This document shows positions 3,150-61,218 of a DNA stretch of 64,000 bases, piece after piece (the stretch's first letter is position 1; each line of letters starts with the position of its first letter). Source of the DNA: an uncultured Gammaproteobacteria bacterium (GTDB lineage Bacteria > Patescibacteriota > Microgenomatia > Daviesbacterales > UBA10151); NCBI GenBank assembly GCA_964459095.1, contig CAYWKL010000002.1:2858-66857 (forward strand). Reading direction: 5' to 3'. The position numbers and the translations under genes are program-made. The notes beneath the pieces are model-generated. The model was not told where the DNA came from. It saw nothing but the letters and a program-made list of their open reading frames with translations, and searched no databases.

Positions 3150-3980
3150 ATGGAAGAACTAAAAACATTCGAGCAGGTCATAGGGATACAGAGATATAGC
3201 AACTCAACAAAGAGGATTTATAGGTTTCATATTAAAAACTTCTTGATATTTTGTAGAGGCAAGCCTGCCCAAGATAAAATTTTGGAGTATTTATTCAACC
3301 TGGAAAGGTACAAACCATCATCGCTGAACATAGCAAAATACAGCATAATTTACTTTTTCAGAAATATTATGAATCAGGAGATAATTACCAAAATACCTAA
3401 AATAAAAAGGGAAAAATTATTGCCAAAAACGATTGATAGTGATGCGATAATGAAGATGGTAAACATAACTTCCAACCTCAAGCATAAAATATTGATAGAG
3501 CTTTTGTACAGTAGTGGGTTAAGATTGGGAGAGGTTAATAAAGTACAATGGACTGATTTAGATTTCAAGAACAGATTAATCTTTGTAAAGGGCAAAGGCA
3601 ACAAAGAAAGGTATACCAAGCTATCTGAAAGAGTTATTGGTGATTTGATGAAATATAAAGAAGTGAGGAATGCTAAGGGAGATAACAAAAACCCCTATGT
3701 GTTTGATAGTGAGCAAAGACCAGAAACCCATATATCCAAAAAGACAGTTCAGAAAGTTTTGGAGAATGCTGCAAGAAAACTGAATTTGGATGTTAGGGTG
3801 TCACCCCATAAGATAAGGCATTCTTTTGCAACTCATAGTTTAGAGAATGGAATTGATAGTAGGTTTATTCAGAAGATGCTGGGACATTCAAGCTCAAGAA
3901 CAACAGAGATTTACACACAAGTTACAAGAAATAGTCTGAAGAACATTGAAAGTCCTTTGGATGTTGCTTGCAGAGTGTAG
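3150..3980 (+). CDS. Tyrosine recombinase/integrase (XerC/D-like).
   Basis: Catalytic R (SGLRLGEV), HKIRHSFAT (HxxR), GHSSSRTTEIYTQV (catalytic Tyr). Confidence 0.85.
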   Translation: MEELKTFEQVIGIQRYSNSTKRIYRFHIKNFLIFCRGKPAQDKILEYLFNLERYKPSSLNIAKYSIIYFFRNIMNQEIITKIPKIKREKLLPKTIDSDAIMKMVNITSNLKHKILIELLYSSGLRLGEVNKVQWTDLDFKNRLIFVKGKGNKERYTKLSERVIGDLMKYKEVRNAKGDNKNPYVFDSEQRPETHISKKTVQKVLENAARKLNLDVRVSPHKIRHSFATHSLENGIDSRFIQKMLGHSSSRTTEIYTQVTRNSLKNIESPLDVACRV

Positions 3981-4559: not shown

Positions 4560-4754
4560 GTGATAAGCATCAGTGAAGAGTTTGTTGATTTCATTGCTTT
4601 CTTGGATGATAATGAGGAAAAGAGAGAGTGGTATGTAAAGATAATTGAAGCCAGCCACTTTGTAACATTCATAACCAAGGACGGAAATACTGTTTCTATA
4701 CCCTCAAGCAGGGTTTTGAAGATAAAAAAGAGGAGAGTTGCTTCAGATGATTAG
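4560..4754 (+). CDS. Hypothetical small acidic protein overlapping the MCM start.
   Basis: ORF track only. Confidence 0.3.
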   Translation: MISISEEFVDFIAFLDDNEEKREWYVKIIEASHFVTFITKDGNTVSIPSSRVLKIKKRRVASDD

Positions 4755-7700: not shown

Positions 7701-8001
7701 CCTTGCGTTTAACCTCAAGAAGAAATCATTTATAGAGCTTGGGATAATATCAGAGGCAGGGGGATTCAGCTGGGCAAAGCTTGAGGAGGTAGAGGAAAAA
7801 GTTATATCTGAGAAAGAAATAATTCATAACATACTGAGGGAACTGATGCCAGATGGCAGCACCATGGCTGAATGGCACGAGATAATTAAGAGATGCACTG
7901 AGAAAGGGATAGAAGAGGATAAAGCTGAAGAGCACATCCAGAAGCTGATTACAAAGGGAGATTATTTTGAACCGAAGCGGGGATTCCTGAGGAGGATATG
8001 A
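4738..8001 (+). CDS. mcm: Archaeal-type MCM replicative helicase (662-aa extein) interrupted by a 425-aa intein. N-terminal C4 zinc finger (CSNCG...CNCG), Walker A GNPGGGKT, Walker B reconstituted as GVC|VIDEVDK, C-terminal winged helix.
   Basis: Motif match to the MCM AAA+ core. The ORF-track start at 4738 is TTG. A likely ATG start is 4747. Confidence 0.85.
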   Translation: MLQMISERISEFADFFAKNYMAELTQAKGCIIISFTSLSEWNVDLASELLGSPEDYLKMANKAIQTLIDEREITVRFTGLPNTQNRNVWETRKEDVGKFIALTGIINKSSSIIHLCETAKFECSNCGTVMSIVQNDGKFTEPSKCNCGRKGKMNLIDKEFTDIIKLGVIDDLMARENVDRSIAREKLAILSQDLTSLEVDQKIKPGKKVVLNGYFKYQQKSGSAEFDSIFHVNSMEFVQVGWDTVKVNTIEESQIKMLAKQDDIINRLAESIADVEGFAEAKKACLLMLAGAPHKYDENGHLVSRGTTHILLIGNPGGGKTFLAKRAGSISPVYSFASAATASGKGLVAAVSQDKDIGAWVIYPGVVAMANKGVCISGNQKIMTSRGLLSIKDVKQDDKILSFGFDGVKEKHVSGLIFNGVKEVVQLTLYSGDTITCTPDHRIMTSGGWKPAGDLTTKDYIKNYFTSITNFENREDIEDGWLFGFALSDVWYNTSLKKGSKNCVRNVMSYSSSIINKERSEYVHKLLIGRGIRSIHVKNIPSNKHLVAGKQQKFKEGVTYRFSDKKLHNEIKDMMESNLLVKSTDDFYAGFLAGILSTDACISHKKGKYGIKHEIAVTLTRYNKSSQTKEWNRNIQILVNSLFHRFGILSCIRGDKIIISSLTSYNLCVSLLKEFMVGKNKEKLYHVLPKKRISSYDDWMDDEYVKWFCSIKFKTSKTVKYGLHSSIWYSRKKKRVSSQLMNILFKFWEEITDEEFWPPAKDYLLNKIISVERAGSQEVYDITIPENHNFMLTGGLAHNCVIDEVDKTHKDDYGDHNNAMNDMECLIAKGNVKGKLETETSYLATANPENRIFSSYDTYANQIDMPKDFQDRFDLILPMVSPTDKKAQEKIMDIMLGRHTDDKSKKSWNPEFTHNFIQKYVAYCRRSNPNPILSPELFAYIKKKLIELMKPRSEEQSMISFRHLESILRFEYGAARLRLRDITEEDVDLAFNLKKKSFIELGIISEAGGFSWAKLEEVEEKVISEKEIIHNILRELMPDGSTMAEWHEIIKRCTEKGIEEDKAEEHIQKLITKGDYFEPKRGFLRRI
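5860..7134 (+). mobile_element. Intein (Cys1 ... His-Asn, +1 Cys) with a LAGLIDADG homing-endonuclease domain (LFGFALSDVWY, YAGFLAGILSTDACI), inserted in the MCM Walker B motif.
   Basis: Boundaries verified on the sequence: tgt at 5860-5862 begins CISGNQ..., and ...GGLAHN ends at 7134 followed by Cys. Splicing restores GVCVIDEVDK. Confidence 0.8.
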
Positions 8002-14442: not shown

Positions 14443-15273
14443 ATGGCAGTTTATAGCGGATATGTGATTGGTGGGATTGTTGCTTTATTTTTGATAGCAG
14501 GAGTTAGAATAGTAAGGCCTATTGAAAGGGGATTAATAGAAAGGCTAGGAAAATACAACAGGTTTGCAGAAGCGGGATTTCATTTTGTGATTCCCTTAAT
14601 AGAGAAAATGGTTAGGGTGGATATCACAGAGAATATGATGGAGATAGACACGCAGGAGATTATTACCGAGGATAATTTAAATGCAAAGGTGGATTTAGTG
14701 GTTTACTATAAAGTTATTGAAGATGAAAGCGCAGTCAAGAAATCAGTCTATAAGGTTTCAGAATTTGTGCCGCAGATTACAAGGCTTGCGCAGACAACTA
14801 CAAGAAATGTCATAGGAACAATGGCTTTTAAGGATGTTAATTCTAAAAGGAATAAGCTGAATGTAGATATTGCCACTATTCTGAAAAAAGAGACTGCAAG
14901 CTGGGGTGTTGAAATACTGAGGGTAGAGCTTAAGGAGATAATCCCGCCAAAAGAAGTTCAGGAAACCATGAACCAGGTTATACAGGCGGAGAATACCAAG
15001 AGAGCAGCTATTGACTTTGCTACCTCAGTAGAAACAAAAGCTGATGGCGAAAAGAGAGCATTAATCAAATCAGCAGAAGGGCAGAGGCAGATGAAAATAT
15101 TGGTTGCAGAAGGTGCAGCAAAGGCTTATGACCTTGTTAATGCACACTTTAAGGGAAATGCCCAGCTTCTTAAAAAATTGGAAGTTGCGCAGATAGCATT
15201 GCAGAACAACGCAAAAATAGTTTTAGGTGCGGACAGCAAACAAGTGCTTAAACTATTTGACTTGAACAGGTAG
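14443..15273 (+). CDS. SPFH/band-7 (stomatin/prohibitin-like) membrane protein.
   Basis: N-terminal TM, then RIVRPIERGLIERLGKYNRFAEAGFHFVIPLIEKM...DLVVYYKV, the SPFH signature. Confidence 0.85.
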   Translation: MAVYSGYVIGGIVALFLIAGVRIVRPIERGLIERLGKYNRFAEAGFHFVIPLIEKMVRVDITENMMEIDTQEIITEDNLNAKVDLVVYYKVIEDESAVKKSVYKVSEFVPQITRLAQTTTRNVIGTMAFKDVNSKRNKLNVDIATILKKETASWGVEILRVELKEIIPPKEVQETMNQVIQAENTKRAAIDFATSVETKADGEKRALIKSAEGQRQMKILVAEGAAKAYDLVNAHFKGNAQLLKKLEVAQIALQNNAKIVLGADSKQVLKLFDLNR

Positions 15274-15594: not shown

Positions 15595-15738
15595 ACACAA
15601 CATTACAAAAAGCTTTCAGTAAACTGAGAGACAGGATTGTGAAACATCGTAAGAATTGTAAAAAATGGCAAGATGGGAAACAGTGTTTTGACTGCCATAG
15701 GAATACTTTAACATCAATAGAAAAAGAGGTATACGAAT

Positions 15739-16371
15739 TTGACTAAACTAACTTTAATATGTATGATTGGAGTATTATTGATTGGTGGATGCTCTAGTTA
15801 TTACCCATCAGAAATAAGGATAGATAATCAAGCGGGTGAAAGGGTGTTAGTAGACATAAGCAAGAACAATACCAAAGTTGATATTACTATCCAGGAGAAA
15901 CCAAGAGAATTAGTTGAATACTATCTTAAAGGTGACCAACCAATTCAAATTTATTGTGTTGATGAGATAAACAACCAAATAATTTTAAATCATAGCATTC
16001 TCTCGGAGTATCAAAGAGAGAAAGTTGTGAGGGAAAATGTAGTATACACCTATCCAAGATTTGATGTAAATTCCATGCAGAATGTCTTAAAGATTAACAA
16101 TAGTAATTATCTGGATTGTTACTTGAAAGGAATGCTTGAACTCAGCAGAATTAGTTATGTAGACGGAATCTTCATATCTAATAACACAGAATTTGTAAGG
16201 TTTAGCGATATATTTAAAACACGTGAATTTAGCATGGATTGTATAAACTATAATAATAAACCACAAAATGAATGTTTGGTTACATCAACATCGTATGAAC
16301 TGCGGCAGTTTATAGAATCACCCAAAGGTGCAGGTTATTATATATTTGAGTATATTATTGAACTAAAATAA
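15739..16371 (+). CDS. Lipoprotein (LIGGCSS lipobox).
   Basis: ORF track. Confidence 0.5.
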   Translation: MTKLTLICMIGVLLIGGCSSYYPSEIRIDNQAGERVLVDISKNNTKVDITIQEKPRELVEYYLKGDQPIQIYCVDEINNQIILNHSILSEYQREKVVRENVVYTYPRFDVNSMQNVLKINNSNYLDCYLKGMLELSRISYVDGIFISNNTEFVRFSDIFKTREFSMDCINYNNKPQNECLVTSTSYELRQFIESPKGAGYYIFEYIIELK

Positions 16372-16375
16372 AAAA

Positions 16376-16672
16376 ATGGCCACCATAAACCCTAAATGGA
16401 TTATCACCATTGCCTTAGGGTTCCCAATACTCTACATATGGCAGAAATGGGAGTTCAGTATATTGTTTCTTGCAGGGGCTGCATTTTGGGCGTGGAAAAC
16501 CTTTGACGAGGAATATGTGCACAAGTCAGAAGTCGAGAAGAGGGATGTTCCAAGATTGGGGCCTGAGCAGCCTTTCTTCGCTGCAGAGAAGACATGGGAG
16601 ATTGCACCGGACGGAACACCAGTCGCAAAATACCAGGCTCCGCAGCAGTATACTACGCAGAGAGGGAGATAA
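16376..16672 (+). CDS. Small membrane protein.
   Basis: ORF track. Confidence 0.45.
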   Translation: MATINPKWIITIALGFPILYIWQKWEFSILFLAGAAFWAWKTFDEEYVHKSEVEKRDVPRLGPEQPFFAAEKTWEIAPDGTPVAKYQAPQQYTTQRGR

Positions 16673-17164
16673 AATATAGGAGGGGTATAAATGTTTAACA
16701 ATGAATTGGTTTTGGATACTTTTGGCAGAATAAGGTTAGTTGAATGCCATGATTTAGTGAATAACAATAAAGAGTGGTATATACAAAGAATGAGATGGTT
16801 TGGATGGGATACTGAAGAGTTTGGAAACAAAAAGAAAATTGTTGGAGCATATAATAGAATTAAAAAACACATCTCAAAAACTCAATACAATACATAAAAT
16901 TGGGTACATTCTAAAGTATAAAAATGATTAAGAAAGAAATTAAGACTGAATGGCAAAATCAGGATGGTGAAAATTTTGGTGGGTTTGAAGTATTTACTTT
17001 AATTTTAATAATCATAATGTTACCACTGTTAATTCTTTGGATATGGTCAAATGATAAATTTTATAAAATTATGCTTACTGTTTTTATAACTATATTTTGG
17101 TTGATAATTTATCATAAAGAGTTTCCAAAACGGAAGATATATTTGATAGACAAATAATGATGAG

Positions 17165-17929
17165 GTGGTTTTTATGAAGAAGAACAAATATAAATTATTC
17201 AGCAACCCAATCAAGTGGTATATCCAGAATGTTAAGGACAGCATTGAACCTACTAACTTAAGCCACAGGGTAAGGATGAATATTGATATACCTAAAGGAG
17301 CAACAAAAGGCAGGGCTTTGATTCCATGCGCTATCTATTCATTTGACCACTCTATTGACCTGAATCCTGCTTTAATCAGAAGAAAGGACAAAAAGAAGAT
17401 TAGTGAGTTTCCTGTGAATAAAAGATTCAGTTATGACAGCAATAAATATGATGTGCAGCTAACCAAACAAGAAAAGAAATTAGGATACACTTTAGATGAG
17501 ATTGAGAAATGCAGGCATTGCGGCCAGAGATTAGTTATCGCTGAAGTTGCAGAAACAAGATACAGAAGCTGCCCGGACATTAAAGTGAGAGTTGCTGACA
17601 ATGCAAAAGAAGACTTGAAAATACCTGTGGATTTTGGCATAAACAAAAAGGATGTGATGATGGGGATGTGGTCATGGCTGTTCTTTGACTCGGTAATCGT
17701 CTTTGTAGGGTTTAGCGCTGTTACTGGGTTCAATCTAAGTGAGTATACAACACCATTTATTTCGGCCATCCCTAATTGGGTAAAGTGGATTGTAGGCATT
17801 CCATTGGTAGCTTGGGTATTATTGATGTTAATTGTAATGTTAAGCAGAATACATTACAAAGCATATATGCTATGGAAATGGTGGAGGAATATCAAGCCTA
17901 CATTAACAAAAATTAGAGTTGCAAACTAA
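17165..17929 (+). CDS. Membrane protein with an internal Zn ribbon (CRHCGQ...CPD) and C-terminal TM helices.
   Basis: ORF track. Confidence 0.5.
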   Translation: MVFMKKNKYKLFSNPIKWYIQNVKDSIEPTNLSHRVRMNIDIPKGATKGRALIPCAIYSFDHSIDLNPALIRRKDKKKISEFPVNKRFSYDSNKYDVQLTKQEKKLGYTLDEIEKCRHCGQRLVIAEVAETRYRSCPDIKVRVADNAKEDLKIPVDFGINKKDVMMGMWSWLFFDSVIVFVGFSAVTGFNLSEYTTPFISAIPNWVKWIVGIPLVAWVLLMLIVMLSRIHYKAYMLWKWWRNIKPTLTKIRVAN

Positions 17930-19026: not shown

Positions 19027-20856
19027 TTGTATTATCTGTATTACCTTGTTTCCAAAATGCATGAATCTGACTTTGCTTTGCAGTGGCTGGATTACCTAGG
19101 CAATGAAATATATAACAACGGAAAAAGGATATTTAAATATGAAGGCCAGCCCAAATACGATATTTCTAGGCTAATCAGCAGGATAAGGATTGGTGAGGAG
19201 CTTGGGTCTGAGAAGAATATAGAATACACATTTATGTCTTATTCTGAACTTCAGAAGGTGGGGTATGTTGTATTTGCCGGAACTGACCTTATCTGGAGGG
19301 AGAGGCAGCAGTATTATTACAAGCTAAAGAAGAGGGACAGGGACAGTGTAGGAATCAATGAAAAGGTCTTTGATAGGAAGCTTAAGGTTCAGCATGACCC
19401 CACAAACAGAAGAATTCGTTTGGTTGGGGAGGATGTGCTGCCACCACAAAAATCACCCATAAATTCAGGAGTAGGCCCCTGGATAGTTTACGACGCAGAT
19501 GCTCCAAAAGAAAGTGATACCCAGGCAAGAAGGGATTTCGCGCTCAGCAAGGAGGGAATCAGGGCATCCTTAAGGAAATGGCAGTATGGGGATAACAGCG
19601 AAGAAGCCGAATATGCTGAAATCAAGGAGCTTCCGATACTCCTGTCGGATGAAAAGTATATAGTATGCATACGGAAGAATATAGTATGCCAAAGGATTAT
19701 TGTGGTAGGGGAGCCGGGTTTTGGTAAATCAATTTGTTGCAACTCGCTTGCAGGAAGAATCTTCTATATATGGGAAGACAGAGTAGGGTGGCTCATTGAC
19801 CCGTTAAACCAGTTTAATGATATAAGCATGCCGCAGGCATTTGACAAGTTTAACAAGATAAATGCATTAATTAATAATGAGCCAAAGCCAATCCCGGCAA
19901 TTCAGTTGTATCTTGCATGTAAGCATAAAGTAGATATGAAAAATAAGGATATTAGCCTGCTGTTAACCTTAGATTTTCTGGAGTTTCTGAACAAATACAA
20001 ATTTTATACCTTTGGCATAAAGGATATGGATGTGGGAGACACTATAAGATACCTCATGGACTTTATTAAGGAGATAAAAGATGTTACTACTTCTGAGGAG
20101 ATAAGTGAGATAATGTTGGATAAGGTCCCAAATGCCCACAAGGATAAGGGAATGAAGGCTATGATATACAAATGGGCAAACACATTTGAGTATATATTTA
20201 AGGAGAAGTTTACTTCCAATATGTACTTGGATGACAAGAAAGCCGCCCATTCATTGCAGCTTAAGCTGAAAGATGGCACGGAGATGGAAGGCCACCCATT
20301 CATTATGTGCTATGAAGCAGGGTTAATTCCTGTTTTGAATATGTCAGCCGCGCGCCGCCAGAGATGGATAAGGAATTACCTTGCTGACCTTATGCAGAAG
20401 ATTGTAGCACATCAAAGCAATGTTCCTGAGGAAAGGAAGCACAGGGTGTGGATTATTGCTGACGAGCTGAATGAGATATATGAAATTGGAAAAAAGAAAG
20501 ACAATGCATTTTTAGCATTTGAAGAATTATTTAGGCAGGGAAGATTCAACAATATAGGGTTTATAGGGAATACGCAGTCTCTTGAAAAGCTGAATCCGGA
20601 GATGTACAAAAATGCAACACATATCTGCTGTGTTTATATGAAGGACTCAAAAGACAGGAAAAGGGTGGGGGATACTTACAATCTCGACAGGGAGGAATAT
20701 GACAAAATTGAGTCCCTCAAGGAGCAGGAGATGATGGTGTTCAGCAAGGAGCCTTTCATAACTTATGACAGGTGGGGCAAGAGGAGGGTTACAGACAGGA
20801 AATGGTTCAGGGGAAGGATACTGCCGCCTATAAACTTCCACAAGGTGCCGGGTTGA
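19027..20856 (+). CDS. HerA/FtsK/VirB4-superfamily P-loop ATPase (Walker A VVGEPGFGKS, Walker B WIIADELNE, downstream FIGNTQS sensor Gln).
   Basis: Motifs and wide Walker A-B spacing. The ORF-track start is TTG. A likely ATG start is 19057. Confidence 0.55.
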   Translation: MYYLYYLVSKMHESDFALQWLDYLGNEIYNNGKRIFKYEGQPKYDISRLISRIRIGEELGSEKNIEYTFMSYSELQKVGYVVFAGTDLIWRERQQYYYKLKKRDRDSVGINEKVFDRKLKVQHDPTNRRIRLVGEDVLPPQKSPINSGVGPWIVYDADAPKESDTQARRDFALSKEGIRASLRKWQYGDNSEEAEYAEIKELPILLSDEKYIVCIRKNIVCQRIIVVGEPGFGKSICCNSLAGRIFYIWEDRVGWLIDPLNQFNDISMPQAFDKFNKINALINNEPKPIPAIQLYLACKHKVDMKNKDISLLLTLDFLEFLNKYKFYTFGIKDMDVGDTIRYLMDFIKEIKDVTTSEEISEIMLDKVPNAHKDKGMKAMIYKWANTFEYIFKEKFTSNMYLDDKKAAHSLQLKLKDGTEMEGHPFIMCYEAGLIPVLNMSAARRQRWIRNYLADLMQKIVAHQSNVPEERKHRVWIIADELNEIYEIGKKKDNAFLAFEELFRQGRFNNIGFIGNTQSLEKLNPEMYKNATHICCVYMKDSKDRKRVGDTYNLDREEYDKIESLKEQEMMVFSKEPFITYDRWGKRRVTDRKWFRGRILPPINFHKVPG

Positions 20857-35292: not shown

Positions 35293-35402
35293 ACTTTCTT
35301 TTATAACTCATTTTTGAAAGGTCTTTATCTGTATATCCTTTTGTTTTTAATACATCATCCGCATTCATTTTGAAAACCTCATTGAACATAATGTTCCCGA
35401 TT

Positions 35403-35708
35403 TCAAGAATGTTTTAATTTAGGCGAAGCCGTCTTGAAACCGCTTTTGGTGGTGCCAAAAACCGAAGGTTTTTTAGCATCGGAATTATCGGCAGTCGCCC
35501 TATCATCATTAACTAATCTCATTATTAAATAAAGTATAAATGCAAAAGGGAGGATTCCAGAGAAAACTCCGAGTAAAACATCTTTATTTCTTGCACCTAA
35601 AAAATACCAAGATATTGCCATAAAATTAGTTATTATCATAGCAATAAATACTATTCTGAAATATAAATCTCTATATTCTTTTTGTTGTATGTACAATATA
35701 TTTGTCAT
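35403..35708 (-). CDS. Small two-TM protein. Its last ~16 codons are encoded by the 51-nt repeat copy 1.
   Basis: ORF track. Confidence 0.45.
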   Translation of the reverse strand: MTNILYIQQKEYRDLYFRIVFIAMIITNFMAISWYFLGARNKDVLLGVFSGILPFAFILYLIMRLVNDDRATADNSDAKKPSVFGTTKSGFKTASPKLKHS

Positions 35709-35745: not shown

Positions 35746-36015
35746 TCACGAAGATTTGTCAACAATATCTAATAATATCTCTTTCCTTTTTATTCCACAG
35801 CCATCGCAGTACATATCATTGCCATATTGACTAAATTTTTTATGTTGACAAACTTTGGGCGAATCGGGATGAGCCGTGAAATTATTATTATGAGAAGGTT
35901 TGAGGTTCTCTTCTCTTTCTGCATTTTCATTATAGATTAAATTAATTTCCCTTGTGATGATTTTCAACGCATCACGAATTCTATTTATTTTATTTCTTAA
36001 TTGTTTATCTTCCAT
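35746..36015 (-). CDS. Small Zn-ribbon protein with an NNFTAHPDSPKVC core. Paralog of 44344..44637.
   Basis: Shared 41-nt near-identical core. Confidence 0.5.
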   Translation of the reverse strand: MEDKQLRNKINRIRDALKIITREINLIYNENAEREENLKPSHNNNFTAHPDSPKVCQHKKFSQYGNDMYCDGCGIKRKEILLDIVDKSS

Positions 36016-36086: not shown

Positions 36087-36497
36087 TTATGTTTCTCCTT
36101 GATTGTTAGGATTGGTTTTGTCTATTTCATCTTTAAGCTTGTACAGCAGCAATTCAAATTCTTTGGCGGTATACCTTTTCTTAAATTCCTTGTTGTATGC
36201 TTCTTTCTGGCCGTATACATATTCCGGATTTTTTTCAATCTTTTCTATTGCTAATTTCAGGAATTCTTTCTCCGGCTCGGTAAGTGCGCTGCGGCTGTAG
36301 AAAGGATTGCTTTCTAATAACTCATCAATGTGCTTTATTTTTAGCAGGAGCCTCTCCCTTTCTGCCAGTATAAACTCCTTGGACAGGTAATCGGAGTTTA
36401 TGTAATTTCTGATTTTGTCTGTTGTGTTTTTCCCCTCCATTGCGCTGTCTATCCTGTCGATTATATCGTCTGGGATTTCGATGTGTATCATTACCAT
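36087..36497 (-). CDS. Putative ribbon-helix-helix (CopG/Arc-like) DNA-binding protein (N-terminal IHIEIPDDIIDRIDSA beta-strand) with an alpha-helical extension. First gene read out of the origin-like region.
   Basis: Motif resemblance. Confidence 0.35.
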   Translation of the reverse strand: MVMIHIEIPDDIIDRIDSAMEGKNTTDKIRNYINSDYLSKEFILAERERLLLKIKHIDELLESNPFYSRSALTEPEKEFLKLAIEKIEKNPEYVYGQKEAYNKEFKKRYTAKEFELLLYKLKDEIDKTNPNNQGET

Positions 36498-36861
36498 TTT
36501 ATATCACCAAATATAAGTAATACGAGCTTATTTATATGGTTTTCTATTTAATATTAAAACGTATGATATTTGGGTGTAATATATATAAATAGGGAATATT
36601 AGGGATATATTATATATTTCATTAATTATTTTATATATTGAAAATATGTAGTAAATTGTTGTTGTGTAATATTATTTTGTTTATTGTATATATTGAAATT
36701 ATATGATTAATATAAAAAATTTCATAGTGCCTAACCATTTTCTCACTCGTAAATTTTACATAAATTTTACCTTTAAGTTACTCATAAAAAAATTGAATAC
36801 ACCCCATCGTTTCCACTGGAATGTAGGAAAATAAATGTTTTGACGACGATAACACTCCCAT

Positions 36862-36891
36862 TTCCTATGGAAAAATAAAAAAGGGAGGGGG
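36862..36891 (+). repeat. ORB-like element 1: dyad ttcctatggaa plus 10-nt spacer plus G-string gggaggggg.
   Basis: Seen in the sequence. Resembles the archaeal origin recognition box architecture. Confidence 0.45.
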
Positions 36892-37071
36892 TCCCTGAAA
36901 TTAAAAATATATATATTTCCTATACTATCTGTTTGTATAAAATATTAAAATGTATGTTGTGTGGTTTAAAGTTATATATAATATTAAAAATATATTATAT
37001 ATTAAAAAATACCATATAGTTAGGTATTACATAATTAATATAAGATATATATATATTTTTGTTTTTTTGTA

Positions 37072-37099
37072 CCCCCCTCCAAATTGCGTTCCAGTGGAA
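37072..37099 (-). repeat. ORB-like element 2 (inverted): G-string cccccctcc plus 8-nt spacer plus dyad ttccagtggaa.
   Basis: Seen in the sequence. Inverted relative to element 1 across the AT-rich core. Confidence 0.45.
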
Positions 37100-37305
37100 A
37101 TGAACGTAGCGGTCGTTAGGCTGTACAATTTACTCACTACCCTTTAAGCTCTACTTCCACTGGAACACGAGTGAAATTTAGTATGTATTTATATACTATT
37201 AAAATCAAAAAAACACATATGTTTCCTATGGAATATTTGATATAGGAAAATATAAACAACATTCTAAACTATTAAAAATATATTATATATTATTTAATAA
37301 ACACA

Positions 37306-37920
37306 CTATTCTATCCTCTCTATCATACCATTCTTATGGTGTATGACACAACCTCTATAACTTAATATCTTCATTGGCCAATAAAAATACTGAAGATAAT
37401 CATGGCGCGAACCAAAGAATTTGTCAAACTGAAATGTTCCAGAATCCCTGTTAAACCGCGTTATACCTAACTCCCTGCAGATATTCTCGGCCACTGTTGA
37501 TGTTCTTACCTTTCTACCTAAAGGCTGCCTTAAAACCACATTCTTCCATATTCTTCCAACAAGCACCTTGTCTACGTTATGCTTAAACTCTTTTACGCTA
37601 ATTTCACCAGTCTCCGGGTCCTCAACTTTTCTATGCTCAGTTACCTGGTAAATCTTTGGAAATTCCCTGATATCCTTGAAGTCAATACCTTTGAACGGCT
37701 GCGTTGCGACTTCTTGCTTCTTAAAGTCTTCCCGCAATCCGGGAACCTCTACAGTGCCGACAATGGCTTCTACCTTTTCAATGTCCGAGTACTTAAACAC
37801 CCATAAATAACCTTTTGAATAATAGTCATATATTGGATTAACAATCGTTAACTTCATCAATGGCTCATACTCTGTTCTAAGGTATTTCAACCTTATCCCA
37901 AAATACAGTTCTGATTTCAT
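37306..37920 (-). CDS. Hypothetical 204-aa protein directly flanking the origin-like region.
   Basis: ORF track. Confidence 0.5.
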   Translation of the reverse strand: MKSELYFGIRLKYLRTEYEPLMKLTIVNPIYDYYSKGYLWVFKYSDIEKVEAIVGTVEVPGLREDFKKQEVATQPFKGIDFKDIREFPKIYQVTEHRKVEDPETGEISVKEFKHNVDKVLVGRIWKNVVLRQPLGRKVRTSTVAENICRELGITRFNRDSGTFQFDKFFGSRHDYLQYFYWPMKILSYRGCVIHHKNGMIERIE

Positions 37921-41363: not shown

Positions 41364-42367
41364 TTAATGGTGAAGCATCTCCTTTGCTTTTTCTTCTGCC
41401 CTCAACCTGTCGCCTTCGCCTTCAAGCCGTTTTTGTGTTTTATTAATTTCTTCCACATCCATCCTTAAGTTTGCTTCAACAATTGACCTCTCCTTTTCTA
41501 TCTCTTGAGTTTTAACTTGCTGAACTCTAAACACCTCTAATTCTTTCTCTCTTGCCTCTTTCTGTTTTTCAGCAACTTTCATATTCTTCTCTTGTTCCCG
41601 TTTTGCAACTTCTTCATCTCGCATTATCTCCCTTTTTTTAGCCTCTTCGTCTGCTTCCGCTTCTTTGAATCTTGCAATCTTTGCCTGCTCAGCATTTTTC
41701 TGCCTTGCTTCGGAATTTATCTGCCTTTCTATTATAGATGAAATATCATGGATAACTCTTGAGTCAACCCCAAAAGAGGGGTCAGGGTCTTTAAAATCAA
41801 TTAATTCAAGACTCTTTAATTCAAGCCCCCAATTGGATATAGTCTCACTCAATATGGGATTGATTGCTTCAATTATATCCTGCCTATTATTAATTACTTC
41901 CCTTATTGCTTTCTTGGTGGTAACATCTCTCGTCGTAGACTGCACTATAACTGAAATCTGCTCATTTAATACCCTCAAATCCCCGCCAAACCTTTTTGCA
42001 GCTTCTATTGGGTCCTTGACTACTACATAAGTTATTATATCACAAACAAACCTAGCCCTATCCTTATCAAATGCCAGGAAGTTTGGAACATTAACGGGGA
42101 TAATGTTTAGTGGTATCCTATGGACCTGCATACCTAACTTAAGCATAAAAAACCAGCTTGGTATCTGAAAATAGGCGCTCTTGCCATCCGCACTATACTG
42201 CTTATGCGGCGAATATACCCTTCCTTTTCAATATAAACATCATTCCCATTGTCTATATCCTTGTAAGCACGCTCCATATCCTCTAACGTCTTAAACACAA
42301 TCTTATCCCCCTGGGTCCTTGAACCCAACGAAAAATCTTCAACTTTGTATGTTTCCATTTCATTCAC
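41364..42367 (-). pseudogene. Second SPFH/band-7 (flotillin-like, long C-terminal Glu/Lys/Ala coiled coil) gene, split into two frames. ORF 42134..42367 carries the domain start (DVYIEKEGYIRRISSIVRMARAP) and ORF 41364..42146 carries the rest. The two frames join at a T6A run (42146-42152). This is either a frameshifted pseudogene, a homopolymer sequencing error, or a programmed -1 frameshift.
   Basis: The upstream-ORF C-terminus aligns with the SPFH N-terminal strand of the intact paralog at 14443..15273 (IERGLIERLG ~ IEKEGYIRRI). Adding one T, or a -1 slip on T_TTT_TTA, fuses the frames into ...QAGFFMLKLGMQVHRIPL.... Confidence 0.55.
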
Positions 42368-44343: not shown

Positions 44344-44637
44344 TCACGAAGGTTTGCCCGAACCTTTACCCATACACATAGCACAATAAACCCTCATACC
44401 TTTTATTATTCGTTCACCTTTACCTTTACATCGAGGGCAAACTTTGGGCGAATCGGAATGAGCTGTAAAATTATTATTCGGCGACTGAGGCGTAGCCGAA
44501 GCTTGAGGTTTTGAGAGAAAATCTTTTAATGACATCAGCCAATTATCTACATGGTCATAACTTAATCTATTCTCTTTTTCAAGCATTTCATATCTTTTAA
44601 ATGCGTCTTTTTCTTTGAAATATTTATTCCAATTCAT
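44344..44637 (-). CDS. Small protein with an NNNFTAHSDSPKVC core and DnaJ-like CxxCxGxG fingers. Paralog of 35746..36015.
   Basis: Shared 41-nt nucleotide core (44437-44477 vs 35849-35889). Confidence 0.5.
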   Translation of the reverse strand: MNWNKYFKEKDAFKRYEMLEKENRLSYDHVDNWLMSLKDFLSKPQASATPQSPNNNFTAHSDSPKVCPRCKGKGERIIKGMRVYCAMCMGKGSGKPS

Positions 44638-45173: not shown

Positions 45174-45692
45174 TTTTTTCCTCCTTTTTCGTTAGCTCGG
45201 CGGTTTATGTTTTAATATCGCTTAATGTTCCCGATTTCAAGAATGTTTTAATTTAGGCGAAGCCGTCTTGAAATCGGAATTATGCGATAGTAAACCCAAA
45301 ACCATCTATCTTAATTTTTTTATAACTTCATCTTTTCCAACTCTGAAATAATCATATCCTAAAAACTTTACATAATATCCTTCTTTATCTTCTTTTTTTA
45401 CTTTTCTTATTGCAGTAAATTGCCCATAATTTGTTGATACATGGAATTTTATCTTCATTTTTTATCATCTCCGTTTTGGGTTTATTTTGCATAAGTTCCA
45501 GTATAACGCAACTCTATTCTAAATATTTATATTGATTTTTGATATGAACCTATCCATCCATATCCTTATCAGCTTACTCCTGTCATAGCCTCTTGTATCG
45601 CATATCTTCCCAAACTTCTCCCATTGCTGCGGGTAAACTGTGATTGTTCTTGATTTAAGCTTTTCCATAGTAATTAGGTATTACACTATTAT

Positions 45693-46922
45693 TTATATAG
45701 TTTTCGGTTTAATCCTTCTGTTACCCTCAATTCCTTTCTCTTCAAGTATCATAAACTTGCTTATCTCTCTGTTCAACCCAACATTGAGCATAGTCTTAAA
45801 AATCTGCTCAGGGCTGATTCCCATCGCCTCTCCCATCCTCCTGACTTGATTACCTTCTTCCGTGAGTTCAAGTATTATCTCCCCATCTTTCTCGATAACA
45901 TTCTTCACAAGATTTAGGCCGCCATCTGCTCTCTTCTTCCTGCCTAGCTCGTCATAAATCTTTAAGGGGTTGCCATCTTCAATCTCCAGTCTGCCTTTCT
46001 CAGTAAGCCTTATGCCTATCCTTTCCTTCTCAATATCATCTAAAGTCTTCCATTCATCAGCAGTATACTCCTTCCCATCCATAAATTCTATCCAGCCTTT
46101 CTTGATAGCTTCATAAATTCCGCCCATGACCATGCTTGAGATTGCTTTGTCAAGTGAAATATTCTCCTTATCTAACGATTTGTTTAGCTCATCCAAATAA
46201 TTAGTTACCCTCTCTTTGCCTTTTCCGTCGCTGTCATTAACCCTGAACTTTCCGTCTTTCTCCTCTATAAACCCCTTGGCTATCTGCTTATCCAAACTTT
46301 TATTTATCTCTTTCAGCGAGATGCCAAGCTGCTCAGCCAGCTCTTCCCTTGTGGTCCATTCAGTCATTCCTTTAATCAAATCCATGCTGGGTTTATTATT
46401 ATTATCAAAATGTTTTAAGTAATCCTCAACTCTTAGGAATCTCATTGACTCCTTTGACTTGAACTTTCCATTGTCCTCTTCCATCAGCCCATCATTTACA
46501 AGCTCAGAAACATGCTCATCAATCTTCTTTAAGGGCATCTTCATCATCTCAGCCACTTCTTTCTTTGTTACCCACCTGTCAAAGTGCAGAAATATATTTC
46601 TTTTGTTGTCATCCATGCCCAATACTCTCCTGCCCTTGTCAGTAATATTAAACCTGACTTTATTCTTAGAGGATGCAGGCAAAGAATCATATTCTTGTGC
46701 AGTCAGATTATCACCATTCAGATTAGGAGTGATAAACCCCCAATGTAAAGATGCTTTTATATTTTCATCAACCTCATCATCAGGTGTTGCGCCTTCAGGA
46801 TAAAAAATTACCCTATCCTTTACCCCTTTAGGCAGCCTTCTCAGTTCTTGTGTTGTCAATATCCGGTCTCCCAACTTTGCAATGATTCCTTTATCTTCGA
46901 CTATTGGTTTCATCTTTCTCAA
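45693..46922 (-). CDS. Protein with multiple tandem winged-helix-like DNA-binding repeats (LxxIxExxxELxxxGLIEExDGKF pattern repeated at least 4 times).
   Basis: Internal repeats seen. No ATPase motifs. Confidence 0.45.
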   Translation of the reverse strand: MRKMKPIVEDKGIIAKLGDRILTTQELRRLPKGVKDRVIFYPEGATPDDEVDENIKASLHWGFITPNLNGDNLTAQEYDSLPASSKNKVRFNITDKGRRVLGMDDNKRNIFLHFDRWVTKKEVAEMMKMPLKKIDEHVSELVNDGLMEEDNGKFKSKESMRFLRVEDYLKHFDNNNKPSMDLIKGMTEWTTREELAEQLGISLKEINKSLDKQIAKGFIEEKDGKFRVNDSDGKGKERVTNYLDELNKSLDKENISLDKAISSMVMGGIYEAIKKGWIEFMDGKEYTADEWKTLDDIEKERIGIRLTEKGRLEIEDGNPLKIYDELGRKKRADGGLNLVKNVIEKDGEIILELTEEGNQVRRMGEAMGISPEQIFKTMLNVGLNREISKFMILEEKGIEGNRRIKPKTI

Positions 46923-47214
46923 CCAATTCCTTTAAACCTATAACTATCCTTCTAGTTTTCTCAATTTCTTTGATAAGCATATTCACCCTCCCTACTATTG
47001 ATTCAAGAGTCTTCTCAACATTTATCCTCTTATAAGGGATTGCAACTTCCTGATACCCAACCTCTTTAGCAGTCTTCTCGCTCCCAACCCACCTAAACTT
47101 ATCAGTTATCCATCCATTCTTTAGAGCGGCTAATGTATGGTCGTCACTCAATAATCTTTTCTCACCTTTCTTCCCATAATTCAAATTATTTCCCGTGCAA
47201 TTTACTTCAAACAT
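46891..47214 (-). CDS. Hypothetical protein.
   Basis: ORF track. Confidence 0.4.
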   Translation of the reverse strand: MFEVNCTGNNLNYGKKGEKRLLSDDHTLAALKNGWITDKFRWVGSEKTAKEVGYQEVAIPYKRINVEKTLESIVGRVNMLIKEIEKTRRIVIGLKELVEKDETNSRR

Positions 47215-48268
47215 TTTCCCTATACCTCACTGCGTCTTTCTCGCGCTTCTTATCCATTATCTGATGCAACGGCTTCTTCAAAGGCTCAATGTCGTCATAA
47301 AATATATTTTCTTTCTTAAGCTGAACTATCCTCTCATCCTCCTTATCATCAGTCACTCTGTATACCCTCTTAACCAAAATGCCTTCACCCTTGATGAAAG
47401 GTTCAATCTTTATCCATTGCCCCTTCTTGCTCTTGTACCTGTCACTTGCCAGATACCTCATATGACCCCTCACATAAAATGAGTAATTATAATGCCTTCC
47501 GCTTAACCCTCCGCCTAAACTATCAATATACCTTTTCAAAGTTCCTGTCAGTTTTATGACATTTGAATCCGGCAGTGCCATCTTGCCTTCCTTGATTCTT
47601 CGTTGGATGTTCTTCTCCTCCCTCTTCCTTTCCACTATCTGAATTTCCCTATCGTTGATAAACACCAGCAAATTCATTATAAACTCTTTCAGAAATCTTA
47701 ATGTAACCTTATCATCATAAAAAATAGGAACATTTGTCCTGTCAATTATTATCTTGAACTCATCTATAAATAATTTGTCTCCATCCTGGCAGAGATAATG
47801 CACCCTGTAGCCCATACCTATCTTCTCAAATCTTATCCCTTTTGAATCCTCCTTGTTTACTATCACCGGGGTTTCTGTAATCATTATCCCTATTATCTTG
47901 TCAACCCCAATCTCGCAATCCTCACCGTTTATCTCAGTGTCCAGGAAAATTGCCTTGAATGGCAGCGTGACATTCCTGTAAAACTCCTTCGTCTGCGGCG
48001 GCTTGTTTAATATCAAATACCTCTTTATGATTGTGTCAATTTCAAACACGTGCGCCATCTCCAGCGCCATATCAATATTGCCAAACATCTCTTTTGATTT
48101 CTTGTGCTCGTATTGTTTAATCTTATCCTCCGTGTCAAGGCCAATCATCTTGTAATGCTTTAGCCTTATCTTATTCATCACGTGGATGTCCAAGGAATTC
48201 AATCCCGTTTCCTCAAAAGTCTTCTTTATGTCATTGTAAACATTCACAAACATCTGGTAGTTAATCAT
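47207..48268 (-). CDS. Possible archaeo-eukaryotic primase (AEP) superfamily protein: FLDTE (motif I-like), GMGYRVHY (motif II-like sGxGYHxH), IDEFKIIIDRTN (motif III-like).
   Basis: Motif order and spacing only. Tentative. Confidence 0.35.
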   Translation of the reverse strand: MINYQMFVNVYNDIKKTFEETGLNSLDIHVMNKIRLKHYKMIGLDTEDKIKQYEHKKSKEMFGNIDMALEMAHVFEIDTIIKRYLILNKPPQTKEFYRNVTLPFKAIFLDTEINGEDCEIGVDKIIGIMITETPVIVNKEDSKGIRFEKIGMGYRVHYLCQDGDKLFIDEFKIIIDRTNVPIFYDDKVTLRFLKEFIMNLLVFINDREIQIVERKREEKNIQRRIKEGKMALPDSNVIKLTGTLKRYIDSLGGGLSGRHYNYSFYVRGHMRYLASDRYKSKKGQWIKIEPFIKGEGILVKRVYRVTDDKEDERIVQLKKENIFYDDIEPLKKPLHQIMDKKREKDAVRYRENV

Positions 48269-58893: not shown

Positions 58894-61218
58894 TTAATCA
58901 TTCATTTTAACTTTCATTCCGAAAGGAACTTTGTCTAAATCTACACCATCTTTTGTTATTACCCATAATGTGGGATACTTCATCTTATCTGGCCATGGGG
59001 TGTACCCATCAGTAAAAATAATAACTACTGAGGGATTAATTCGTCTTTTAGCAATCTCATCTATAGCAACTCGTAAATCAGTTCCGCCCATTCCCTTATA
59101 CTCTCTCCTTATTTCATCCCCTTGATTATACTGGTGATGGGAAGTCACTTGAACGTCTGTCGTTAATAAGTGTAAATTCATCTCAAACTGCTGCAGCAGC
59201 CCATTGCACTCTGACAGGAACTGCTGTTGCGCTTTGCCGCCGGTAGAGCCTGAAACATCCACGATGACAGTAACATCCCCCAGGCTCTCACCAGTAATAG
59301 AAGGCATATACATATCCTGGTGTATAAACCTGCGATTAGATGGGAGCCAACTGAAATCAGACTTTGCTGAAGTAATCACAAACTGCCTCAGCATATTCCT
59401 CCAATCCAGCTTTGGAGCCAATAATTGCTCAATGAACACATCCATCCCAGCAGGCAGTTTCCCTGCCATCTTTGCCTGTTGCCATGCCTTTGACAACTGT
59501 ATTGCCCATTCCTTCTCAAGCTCATCCAACTCCTGCTTTGAGCCTTGAATATCCTTATGAACATCAAAAGGCTTGACTTCCTGTCCGTTTACCTTAATGT
59601 TGCCTTTGGCGTCTATCTCAATCTTTATGTCTCCCTTCTCGTATCTTCTGTAGCCGTTCTTGCCTTTGCCGTTCATCTCAGGCAGCTTGTTGTAGATTTC
59701 CTCTGCGGTCATATTCTCAAACTTCTCGTTGTATAGTCCGCCTTCAGGAACAAAATTAAACTCTTTCTTGAGGATAGCGTTGATGACAAAGTCACAATTA
59801 TGAACCACAACATTATTTACCATATAATTATGATTTTCTGTAGATAAATTATAAACTATTCCACTATACGTCTCTTTTTCTATTTTGACAATAGGGGTTA
59901 CAAAATAATTTCCTAAATCTTTCCACCTATAATTGTTACTATCAATAGTTTTACCATTTAGTATTCGAGTGGTAGTCTTAAATTTCCTCCATTCTAAACA
60001 ATATAGAATTTGTTTGGGAAGTATATGTTTTAGAATCATTCTCTCATCTTTCTTCCTCACACTAAAATTGCTAAAAATATCTAAACGAGTAAGCAACATT
60101 TGTAGTTGTAGAATCAACTTCTTGCTTGCTGAACCTACAAAGGTAGTAGTCCCATCTCTGTATATATGTCCATCTCCACAAACATATCCATCAATAAACT
60201 CTTTAATTATTTCCTCATCTTTATTATACAATATAAAATCTGGAATCTTCTTGTTTTTAGCACCCCTACCAAACCAATCAGTAAACGCCCTCTCTAGCAG
60301 TACACTGGATATATTTAATTTTATAACATTCCCCCTATCCTCTCTTTGAATATGTGTGTTAAAATTATTATTAACAATCTTATAAATTTTATCTAAATAT
60401 TTCTCATCTGTTTTCCCTAATCCTAAATTAAACCCTTGATTGCCACTTGAACTGCCTTCAGCAAGATATAATCCCATCAACCAAGCAACATCTTTATTAA
60501 GTATAATCTTCTTGTTCTTAATATTATGTCCATATCTATGAGTCTCTTTAGCATATTTAATTAAATCAAATTCATTAGGTGTTTCTCTTGGTTTAAGTTT
60601 AGGCATCACTAAATAACAATTCTTATCAAGGTCTTTAGCCCCAACCCATTCAAATCTCTTCTTAAATGTTATTGGATTCCCTATTTTCCTTCCTCTTCTC
60701 AAAATCAAAAAGGGATGTTCAGGGGTAACTTTAATCTCCCCTATTCCATTCGCTTTAATTTTATATAAATCACCAGAATATTCCCGTTTCATAACATCAT
60801 TAACTTTATTGTTTCCTTCAAAACATAATATGTCTTGGTCTACCTTAACATTCTTGATTTCTTCATAATCGCCAGATACTACAGTCTCTGATGTAAAGCA
60901 TGCAAAATTCCAGCGTTCAGGCTCTCGCTCCCCCATCCTTATCCCATGTAAAAACACATTATGGAGTACTTCATGCCCCAAAACAAATATTTTATCTTTG
61001 TCACTCAAGCTCTCCGCAAATTCTTTATTATAATATACCCTTTTGTAATCTGTAGCAAATGTGGGTATACTATTATCTTCAACCATCGGCAAATGTAACG
61101 CCAAATTTCCATAAAACGGAAAATCTAAGAGAAGAGCTATTCTTGCTTTAATCAAAGAATCTTTAAGATTCATCTCACACCTCGCCAAACCTCTGAGTTG
61201 CAAACAACCAAAACTCAT
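58894..61218 (-). CDS. DUF2201-type putative metallopeptidase (HEVLH) plus vWA (MIDAS DVSGST) protein, interrupted by a 368-aa intein. The extein is about 406 aa. An alternative start is Met16 at 61173.
   Basis: HExxH motif, N-terminal PFYGNLALHL pattern, C-terminal vWA-like DxSGS...TDG. Intein boundaries verified on the sequence. Confidence 0.75.
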   Translation of the reverse strand: MSFGCLQLRGLARCEMNLKDSLIKARIALLLDFPFYGNLALHLPMVEDNSIPTFATDYKRVYYNKEFAESLSDKDKIFVLGHEVLHNVFLHGIRMGEREPERWNFACFTSETVVSGDYEEIKNVKVDQDILCFEGNNKVNDVMKREYSGDLYKIKANGIGEIKVTPEHPFLILRRGRKIGNPITFKKRFEWVGAKDLDKNCYLVMPKLKPRETPNEFDLIKYAKETHRYGHNIKNKKIILNKDVAWLMGLYLAEGSSSGNQGFNLGLGKTDEKYLDKIYKIVNNNFNTHIQREDRGNVIKLNISSVLLERAFTDWFGRGAKNKKIPDFILYNKDEEIIKEFIDGYVCGDGHIYRDGTTTFVGSASKKLILQLQMLLTRLDIFSNFSVRKKDERMILKHILPKQILYCLEWRKFKTTTRILNGKTIDSNNYRWKDLGNYFVTPIVKIEKETYSGIVYNLSTENHNYMVNNVVVHNCDFVINAILKKEFNFVPEGGLYNEKFENMTAEEIYNKLPEMNGKGKNGYRRYEKGDIKIEIDAKGNIKVNGQEVKPFDVHKDIQGSKQELDELEKEWAIQLSKAWQQAKMAGKLPAGMDVFIEQLLAPKLDWRNMLRQFVITSAKSDFSWLPSNRRFIHQDMYMPSITGESLGDVTVIVDVSGSTGGKAQQQFLSECNGLLQQFEMNLHLLTTDVQVTSHHQYNQGDEIRREYKGMGGTDLRVAIDEIAKRRINPSVVIIFTDGYTPWPDKMKYPTLWVITKDGVDLDKVPFGMKVKMND
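59797..60900 (-). mobile_element. Intein (CFTSETVV ... VVVHN, +1 Cys) with a LAGLIDADG homing endonuclease (LMGLYLAEGS, FIDGYVCGDG) inside the metallopeptidase-vWA gene.
   Basis: RC of gca at 60898-60900 gives Cys1. RC of att at 59797-59799 gives the terminal Asn, followed by Cys. The extein junction ERWNFA|CDFVINAIL is contiguous. Confidence 0.75.

Follow-up and report, generated by a model that had tools for sequence, protein, structure and literature searches.

The window analysed here, a 64,000-nucleotide stretch of contig CAYWKL010000002.1, represents a virus-like element of ~36% G+C, and its gap at positions 36498-37305 is best read as the site from which an archaeal head-tailed virus or provirus replicates. 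Judged from its sequence, this region would be built like a chromosomal oriC1-type origin, with one full origin recognition box (ORB) and four mini-ORBs. On balance, we lean towards the view that the gap is a viral origin of the ORB type, to which an Orc1/Cdc6 protein, probably that of the host, would bind, and that this protein would load the full-architecture MCM helicase encoded by the virus. By analogy with the origins of Sulfolobus, Pyrococcus and Aeropyrum, Orc1/Cdc6 monomers would bind each box with a defined polarity, the bound proteins would distort the DNA and promote melting of an A/T-rich core, and they would recruit MCM hexamers, which may be the virus's own.

Anatomy of the candidate origin

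An earlier note on this DNA, written from the letters alone, proposed an Orc1/Cdc6-type origin in what it called the longest non-coding stretch of the window, with five palindromic dyads. Both descriptions are accurate. The 808 bp form the longest stretch of the window without a same-strand open reading frame (ORF) of at least 50 aa, the next internal gap measuring 250 bp, and TTCCWNTGGAA occurs at 36811, 36862, 37089, 37155 and 37223, that is, five times within 423 bp, with just two further sites in the 64 kb. Counted by strand, this pattern has 10 matches where 0.80 would be expected, and none of the shuffles attained 10. A looser pattern, TTCCNNNGGAA, recovered the same five sites in the gap and four elsewhere in the window. 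The features of the region are as follows.

36498-37305, no strand: whole intergenic region of the candidate origin, from the stop of a 204-aa gene to the start of a 136-aa gene; 76.6% A+T
36801-36821, minus: ORB-a, canonical full ORB TTCCAGTGGAAACGATGGGGT, G-string directed away from the candidate DNA unwinding element (DUE); 20/20 with the Methanomicrobia expression, 19/20 with the Common one
36852-36872, minus: ORB-b, mini-ORB TTCCATAGGAAATGGGAGTGT, dyad at 36862; 14/20 Common, with 11/20 when read on the plus strand
36883-36891, plus: inner G-run GGGAGGGGG, the first G-string of the earlier note; replaced in relative L135 by sequence that is not a G-run
36892-37071, no strand: A/T-rich core, candidate DUE; 180 bp, 85.6% A+T
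37072-37080, minus: inner G-run GGAGGGGGG (CCCCCCTCC on the plus strand), the second G-string of the earlier note; conserved as GAAGGGGGG in L135
37089-37109, plus: ORB-c, mini-ORB TTCCAGTGGAAATGAACGTAG, directed away from the candidate DUE; 16/20 Common and 17/20 with the Thermococcaceae motif, with 13/20 when read on the minus strand
37137-37165, minus: ORB-d TTCCAGTGGAAGTAGAGCTTAAAGGGTAG, dyad at 37155; 14/20 Common, 17/20 with the Thermococcaceae motif
37214-37233, minus: ORB-e, mini-ORB TTCCATAGGAAACATATGTG, dyad at 37223; 15/20 Common, with 10-11/20 when read on the plus strand; arms conserved in L135

The boxes were scored with the ORB consensus expressions of Ori-Finder 2 (PMC4164010, Table 1), which were built from curated archaeal origins. 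Read on the minus strand, dyad 1 (36801-36820, TCCAGTGGAAACGATGGGGT) is an exact match to the 20-nt Methanomicrobia expression, TCCA[GC]T[GT]GAAA[CT][AG]A[AT]GGGGT. ORB-a is the only match to this expression in the window, even when three mismatches are allowed, and ~2.5e-6 exact matches would be expected in the window from base composition. The box is completed on the minus strand by a third G-string (cccc at 36802-36805) that had been overlooked, and a comparison of dyad plus G-string with archaeal ORB profiles, recommended at the time as a check, returned this perfect 20/20 ORB.

The remaining dyads, like that of ORB-a, are polar. An asymmetric GGAAA-Y-R-A-W extension fits all five dyads better on one strand than on the other. 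In the window the sums are 20/25 and, on the opposite strand, 8/25; the corresponding values are 23/25 and 11/25 for L135 and 24/30 and 13/30 for a more distant relative, L127. Symmetric operators would lack such a polarity. ORB-a and ORB-b lie on the minus strand to the left of the core and ORB-c on the plus strand to its right, so that the boxes are inverted with their extensions pointing outward, which is the polarity of chromosomal pairs. More than four mini-ORBs in one intergenic region have been used to recognize archaeal oriC (PMC4640148). The gap holds five dyads, each with a polar extension and one of them forming a full ORB, and an A/T-rich element between inverted boxes whose extensions are distal.

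The earlier note had instead drawn ORB-b and ORB-c as inverted units of dyad plus G-string facing the core. That arrangement is not supported, as the consensus assigns the opposite polarity (11-13/20 in the core-facing direction) and the spacing is non-canonical: between each inner G-run and its dyad there are 8-10 nt, and the run is on the core-facing side, whereas the canonical ORB G-string lies 5 nt away on the side opposite the core. Both runs do exist, but the one at 36883-36891 is not conserved in L135. The inward G/C runs may simply delimit the easily melted core.

The core, said to be an almost pure A/T segment of ~180 bp, is real, although its purity was slightly overstated. No other 100 bp of the 64 kb form a less stable duplex than positions 36965-37064 of this core, between ORB-b and ORB-c, with a nearest-neighbour dG of -92.3 (mean -124.8, standard deviation 7.7). 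In L135, too, the least stable 100 bp lie between the dyads. An inverted repeat, AAATTTCACTCGT / ACGAGTGAGAAA (37166-37176 and 36745-36757), brackets boxes d through a, with both arms unchanged in L135, and could be a site for another factor. No non-coding RNA or tRNA was found in the window by Rfam (gathering thresholds) or ARAGORN.

Conservation and distribution of the boxes

The 204-aa protein encoded next to the gap has 13 homologues, carried by contigs from groundwater metagenomes with sample names pointing to the Rifle aquifer. In L135/L138 this protein is 90% identical and the orthologous gap is retained, with dyads at offsets of 79, 147, 213, 430 and 481 from the gene end in L135 against 73, 141, 207, 434 and 485 in the window. 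Overall, the two gaps are 74.5% identical, whereas the dyad arms are identical at 40 of 40 positions (Fisher p = 7.6e-6); the central trinucleotides of the dyads agree at 11 of 15. ORB-a (GGAAACGATGGGGTGT) is identical and ORB-c (GGAAATGA) is retained in L135. The L135 orthologue of ORB-b, GGAAATGAAA, carries a full mini-ORB extension, and that of ORB-d, TCCATTGGAAATAAAGGGTA, has a G tail and scores 17/20 against the expression by manual count.

The more distant relative L127 belongs to a 98-kb contig found in many samples (L127-L130/L137). The identities of proteins of the window to their L127 counterparts are as follows.

37306-37920: 204-aa protein, 59%
36087-36497: 136-aa protein, 63%
4738-8001: MCM, 64%
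47207-48268: 353-aa protein, 69%
45693-46922: 409-aa protein, 46%

The orthologous gap of L127 (740 bp) contains six of the 18 dyad-like sites in the 20.6-kb locus. One L127 box, TCCATAGGAAATGAAAGGGT, scores 17/20 by manual count and lies on the left on the minus strand, that is, with distal polarity. The early genes, the gap, the MCM gene and a 572-aa ORF (a terminase candidate) are all co-oriented in L127. There, MCM begins 2.2 kb downstream of the 136-aa gene, at 2.6 kb from the end of the gap; the distance from the equivalent gap to the start of MCM is 0.6 kb in L131 (51% identity). Gene order suggests that the MCM-to-structural block of the window is inverted relative to the L127 arrangement, which would explain why MCM lies 30 kb from the gap in the window.

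The significance of the exact box was further assessed by scanning one genome per species, from 185,579 species, with a slightly narrower form of the Methanomicrobia ORB pattern. At least 120 loci were obtained, and among the matches listed 118 of 120 bear archaeal titles from many phyla, including methanogens, DPANN, Thermoplasmatota, Nitrososphaeria, Asgard and others. Among the long ORFs of the listed loci, Orc1/Cdc6 (Pfam Cdc6_lid, Cdc6_C) forms the largest family, encoded within the 8-kb block in 50 of the 120, followed by the PolD small subunit. Since the listed matches are nearly all archaeal and often lie beside orc1/cdc6, the matched motif is, on this sequence evidence, the pan-archaeal chromosomal ORB. 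In all 11 chromosomal inverted box pairs within 800 bp (8 loci), the minus-strand copy stands on the left and the G-strings point outward. One of the two 'bacterial' matches, L057 (CAVZVH010000030.1, labelled Chloroflexia), has an ORB and flanks identical to those of the Nitrososphaerales loci L048 and L071; this contig is probably archaeal and mis-binned.

In 2.9 million viral contigs, a strict ORB scan returned five isolated matches, about the number estimated for chance, and a looser scan found a few unrelated IMG/VR contigs in which small groups of ORB-like boxes occur without Orc1 in the stretch retrieved. These clusters are located in L246 (1925-2110), L238 (1724-2090; = L239), L234/L250 and L249 (10469-10541). 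Terminase and portal genes adjoin three boxes with G tails in L246, and in L238/L239 a 330-bp A/T core is flanked by boxes with long G-strings that form a canonical inverted pair. An ORB origin without a viral initiator may thus be a recurrent strategy in viruses. A pattern of three dyads gave 79 matches in viral contigs, which were rejected as relatives: they represent coding tandem repeats (L153 collagen-like, L143 acidic) or phased arrays in high-GC phage contigs. The latter (L145, L149, L159, L173, L186, L194, L195 and others, ~60-66% G+C) carry 5-10 TTCC-N3-GGAA dyads at 11, 21 or 22 bp, a helical phasing, and presumably belong to bacterial phages in which a different system uses the same dyad arms.

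Initiator, helicase and competing explanations

The genes and the promoter considered in this section are the following.

4738-8001, plus: element-encoded MCM helicase with an intein (Pfam MCM_N, MCM_OB, MCM, MCM_lid, Intein_splicing and a weak archaeal MCM winged helix)
36087-36497, minus: downstream flanking gene, 136-aa protein with a possible ribbon-helix-helix N-terminus; orthologues 63-84% identical after the same gap
37306-37920, minus: upstream flanking gene, 204-aa protein with a C-terminal winged-helix domain
36517-36536 and 36503-36508, minus: promoter-like TATAAATAAGnnnGTATTAC and GGTGAT ribosome-binding site of the 136-aa gene, read directly from the sequence

A tblastn search with 39 diverse archaeal Orc1/Cdc6 proteins gave no match in the window or in L127-L133 (20 kb of L127), and no Cdc6/AAA_22 domain was found in window ORFs of at least 300 aa. 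The earlier observation that no orc1/cdc6 gene is adjacent therefore stands within the window. This absence makes a host initiator the simplest assumption; the host initiator proposed in the earlier note cannot be asserted from 64 kb of an 86,411-bp source contig. An orc1/cdc6 gene beside an archaeal origin is usual, not obligatory; in two Thermococcus species it is located 349-453 kb away. The claim of an element-encoded MCM is borne out by its Pfam domains. This MCM has the plain cellular architecture, without an extra N-terminal DNA-binding domain, and shares ~24-27% identity with haloviral and other MCMs of the phage collection. The possible primase, in turn, was not confirmed: comparison of the 353-aa and 409-aa proteins with Pfam, PHROGs, NCBIfam and PDB sequences returned nothing indicative of a primase.

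The core of the proposal, an Orc1/Cdc6-type origin, is supported by the exact ORB, the four oriented mini-ORBs, the weakest duplex and the conservation of the boxes, but not by the two inward G-string units or by a skew inflection. The flip in GC skew that had been suggested as a check was looked for in the window. The plus-strand gene block begins with a tyrosine integrase (3150-3980) and the MCM gene, includes the terminase large subunit (19027-20856) and ends at ~32.5 kb; from there to 64 kb nearly all genes are small and on the minus strand, and the gap lies within this second block. The sole turn of the cumulative skew is a peak at ~32 kb, at the switch in gene orientation, and the skew follows gene orientation throughout. 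The missing inflection is weak or uninformative evidence because skew here tracks the coding strand, and skew also fails for the oriC of Thermococcales (PMC4640148).

Several observations nevertheless weigh against an origin of this type. No cumulative skew extremum occurs at the locus, and an origin at 37 kb would set most genes head-on to the forks. Approximately 22 kb of the source contig lie outside the 64 kb searched for Orc1. Only one box of the window is fully canonical, the other four scoring 14-16/20 against the Common ORB consensus. In addition, TTCC-N3-GGAA arrays are found in non-archaeal-looking phage contigs, so the dyad alone is not diagnostic. In the equivalent gap of L131 (1500-1770) the ORBs are replaced by another palindrome, TTTCAAAATATTATTCAATATTATTTTGAAAA, present four times, which could reflect a swapped origin specificity; L131 also pairs this repeat with a diverged homologue of the 136-aa protein, which would fit a virus-encoded binder as well. 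Finally, L139, L132 and others have no such gap. Given the absence of the boxes from these more distant relatives, the ORB cluster is specific to one sub-lineage.

Among the alternatives, the one that fares best retains an origin with ORB-like boxes and assigns their recognition to a protein of the element itself, either an Orc1/Cdc6 encoded in the ~22 kb beyond the window or the winged-helix 204-aa or 409-aa protein. We regard this as unlikely, although several observations fit it. Part of the contig does lie beyond the window, and the halovirus BJ1 encodes both Orc1 and MCM (PMC2194725). The 204-aa gene directly adjoins the gap not only in the window but also in L135/L138, L127 and L131, and the 409-aa protein (45693-46922), with a double winged helix-turn-helix, shows weak matches to DnaD_N, Phage_rep_O and a replication-initiator PHROG. 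The exchange of the boxes for another repeat in L131 points the same way. However, the full box equals the pan-archaeal chromosomal ORB, including the asymmetric G-string, as read by cellular Orc1, and the window and the 20 kb of L127 gave no Orc1 match. In the 204-aa family the putative recognition region hardly varies, including in relatives without dyads or gap, and thus does not co-vary with the boxes.

A second alternative holds that the gap is not an origin but a regulatory switch region, in which the dyads are operators of adjacent virus DNA-binding proteins that control the flanking promoters. Dyad-symmetric sites in the largest gap, beside small genes of DNA-binding appearance, are typical of phage switches. 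The gap does contain a promoter-like motif, with conserved counterparts ahead of the orthologous gene in L135 and L127; in L131 the first downstream gene has a similar AT-rich motif in front of it. An imperfect duplication of ~80 bp (36541-36618 and 36932-37003, 71-74% identical) repeats the segment upstream of the 136-aa-gene promoter inside the A/T core, and from this duplication the core may also contain a promoter-like element. The partial duplicate, the lack of a skew inflection, the pairing of the 136-aa homologue with a different repeat in L131 and the TTCC-N3-GGAA arrays of other phage contigs would all suit a switch. Against this, the nearest dyad lies ~270 bp upstream of the TATA-like element of the promoter and no dyad overlaps the promoter, the boxes are polar rather than symmetric, the weakest duplex of the 64 kb falls exactly between inverted boxes, and the exact 20-nt match is to a consensus that is almost exclusively archaeal among the matches listed, often beside orc1/cdc6. 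Nor is the ribbon-helix-helix fold of the neighbouring protein established. The earlier note had described its gene as RHH-like; the 136-aa protein has no family match and no Pfam match even at E = 10, and its AF2 model is poor (pLDDT 62), with helices at 10-19 and 25-34 that are compatible with such a fold and do not prove it. Taken together, we consider a switch region somewhat less probable than an element-encoded reader, and distinctly unlikely.

It is more doubtful still that the gap represents a decaying or passive copy of a host oriC acquired by recombination, or a set of decoy or sensor boxes for host Orc1, with replication starting elsewhere. One perfect box among degenerate ones would fit such a history, as would the lack of skew support for initiation at this locus; under a classical skew pattern, an origin would be expected where the two gene blocks diverge, which is at the ends of the window or outside it. 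However, the dyad arms are evidently constrained (40/40 against 74.5% overall), the architecture is retained in a relative whose flanking proteins are ~60% identical, no host-like genes flank the gap, and the boxes bracket the weakest duplex. An iteron-type origin with an element-encoded Rep, which would show helically phased tandem direct repeats beside a rep gene, is not supported, as the dyads are spaced at 51, 227, 66 and 68 bp in mixed orientation and the flanking genes show no Rep family match.

Relation to known systems and setting of the element

The ORB-type origin proposed here shares its box, TCCAsTGGAAAyrAwGGGGT, with the chromosomal oriC1-type origins (Sulfolobus oriC1, Pyrococcus/Thermococcales oriC and Methanomicrobia oriC), and the element holds one exact copy of it (PMC4164010). 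These origins likewise comprise more than four mini-ORBs in a long intergenic region, with inverted outward boxes around an A/T-rich element (PMC4164010, PMC4640148). Unlike them, the region of the element lies between two small viral genes rather than beside orc1/cdc6, polD or radA, is accompanied by no Orc1/Cdc6 in 64 kb, has no skew extremum and carries extra inward G-runs.

Haloarchaeal tailed viruses and plasmids such as BJ1 resemble the element in having an integrase, MCM and a cellular-type initiation machinery (PMC2194725). In contrast to the window, BJ1 encodes its own Orc1/Cdc6 (PMC2194725), and the MCM of the window is only distantly related to haloviral MCMs (~24-27% identity). MCM-encoding Thermococcales viruses and integrated elements (TKV-like) share with the window a viral MCM without a viral Orc1/Cdc6 (PMC12934983). 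A survey of Thermococcales viruses (2026) described MCM without Orc1 or classical ORBs and proposed an extra N-terminal MCM domain as the origin recogniser (PMC12934983), whereas the window has classical ORBs and an MCM of plain cellular architecture. The combination in the window is the opposite design to that of the Thermococcales viruses, one that predicts dependence on a host initiator.

Origins captured from extrachromosomal elements (Sulfolobus oriC3/WhiP model) similarly involve a mobile element with an origin, part of the initiation machinery and an integrase (PMC3607249, PMC4640148). The captured origins described so far brought their own initiator gene along, whereas the element has universal oriC1-type boxes and no initiator gene was seen in the window. 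By analogy, the element could add an origin to a chromosome. Origin capture from extrachromosomal elements was reportedly set out by Robinson and Bell in 2007.

The type of origin is thus well known; its apparent occurrence on an MCM-encoding virus of uncultured groundwater archaea that seems to lack Orc1 was not found described. We tentatively propose, as a possibility short of an even chance, that a lineage of large groundwater archaeal tailed viruses carries a chromosome-mimicking ORB origin, encodes no initiator and hijacks host Orc1/Cdc6 to load a viral MCM of full architecture. The hosts of this lineage are possibly DPANN or other uncultured archaea. The ORB variants of the element resemble DPANN as well as Thorarchaeota boxes, and tetranucleotide similarity to archaeal loci did not discriminate. 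If the proposal is true, the lineage would be the mirror image of the ORB-less Thermococcales MCM viruses, a present-day representative of the kind of element from which extra origins of archaeal chromosomes are supposed to have come, and a concrete intermediate for origin capture from mobile elements as the source of multiple chromosomal origins. It would also provide a defined viral origin for uncultured archaea and allow such viruses to be assigned to hosts from sequence, through comparison of their ORB variants with the oriC of the hosts. At 0.8 kb with five boxes, the gap is a simple substrate for cross-species Orc1 binding assays, and Cdc6-1 of S. solfataricus is a protein that recognizes ORBs of other species.

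Comparisons with known viruses were negative: megablast of 30-45 kb and tblastn of the terminase against the phage collection gave no match, and a 35-nt ORB-a probe matched no archaeal virus. With regard to attP, cos or pac sites, no long direct repeat connects the gap with the integrase end, and the gap is distant from the terminase. In one of the relatives without the gap, L132, an IS200/IS605-type cassette occupies 15627-17255, with a Y1 transposase, a Cas12f1-like TnpB fragment and a DNA methyltransferase between them.

Elsewhere in the element, each gene block encodes one SPFH/Band 7 family protein (14443-15273 and 41364-42146). Two genes of the window contain inteins, namely MCM (4738-8001) and a gene for a DUF2201 metallopeptidase/VWA-like protein (58894-61218), the intein of which carries a LAGLIDADG endonuclease domain. 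A 54-nt direct repeat (35389-35442 and 45223-45276, 98% identical) holds an 11-bp inverted repeat (CGATTTCAAGA...TCTTGAAAyCG) and could be a terminator or a small RNA; its 45.2-kb copy is intergenic, and that at 35.4 kb coincides in part with the 3' end of ORF 35403-35708. A further repeat of 41 nt (35849-35889 and 44438-44478, 93% identical) lies within paralogous small ORFs, and the two repeats together indicate a segmental duplication inside the early-gene block.

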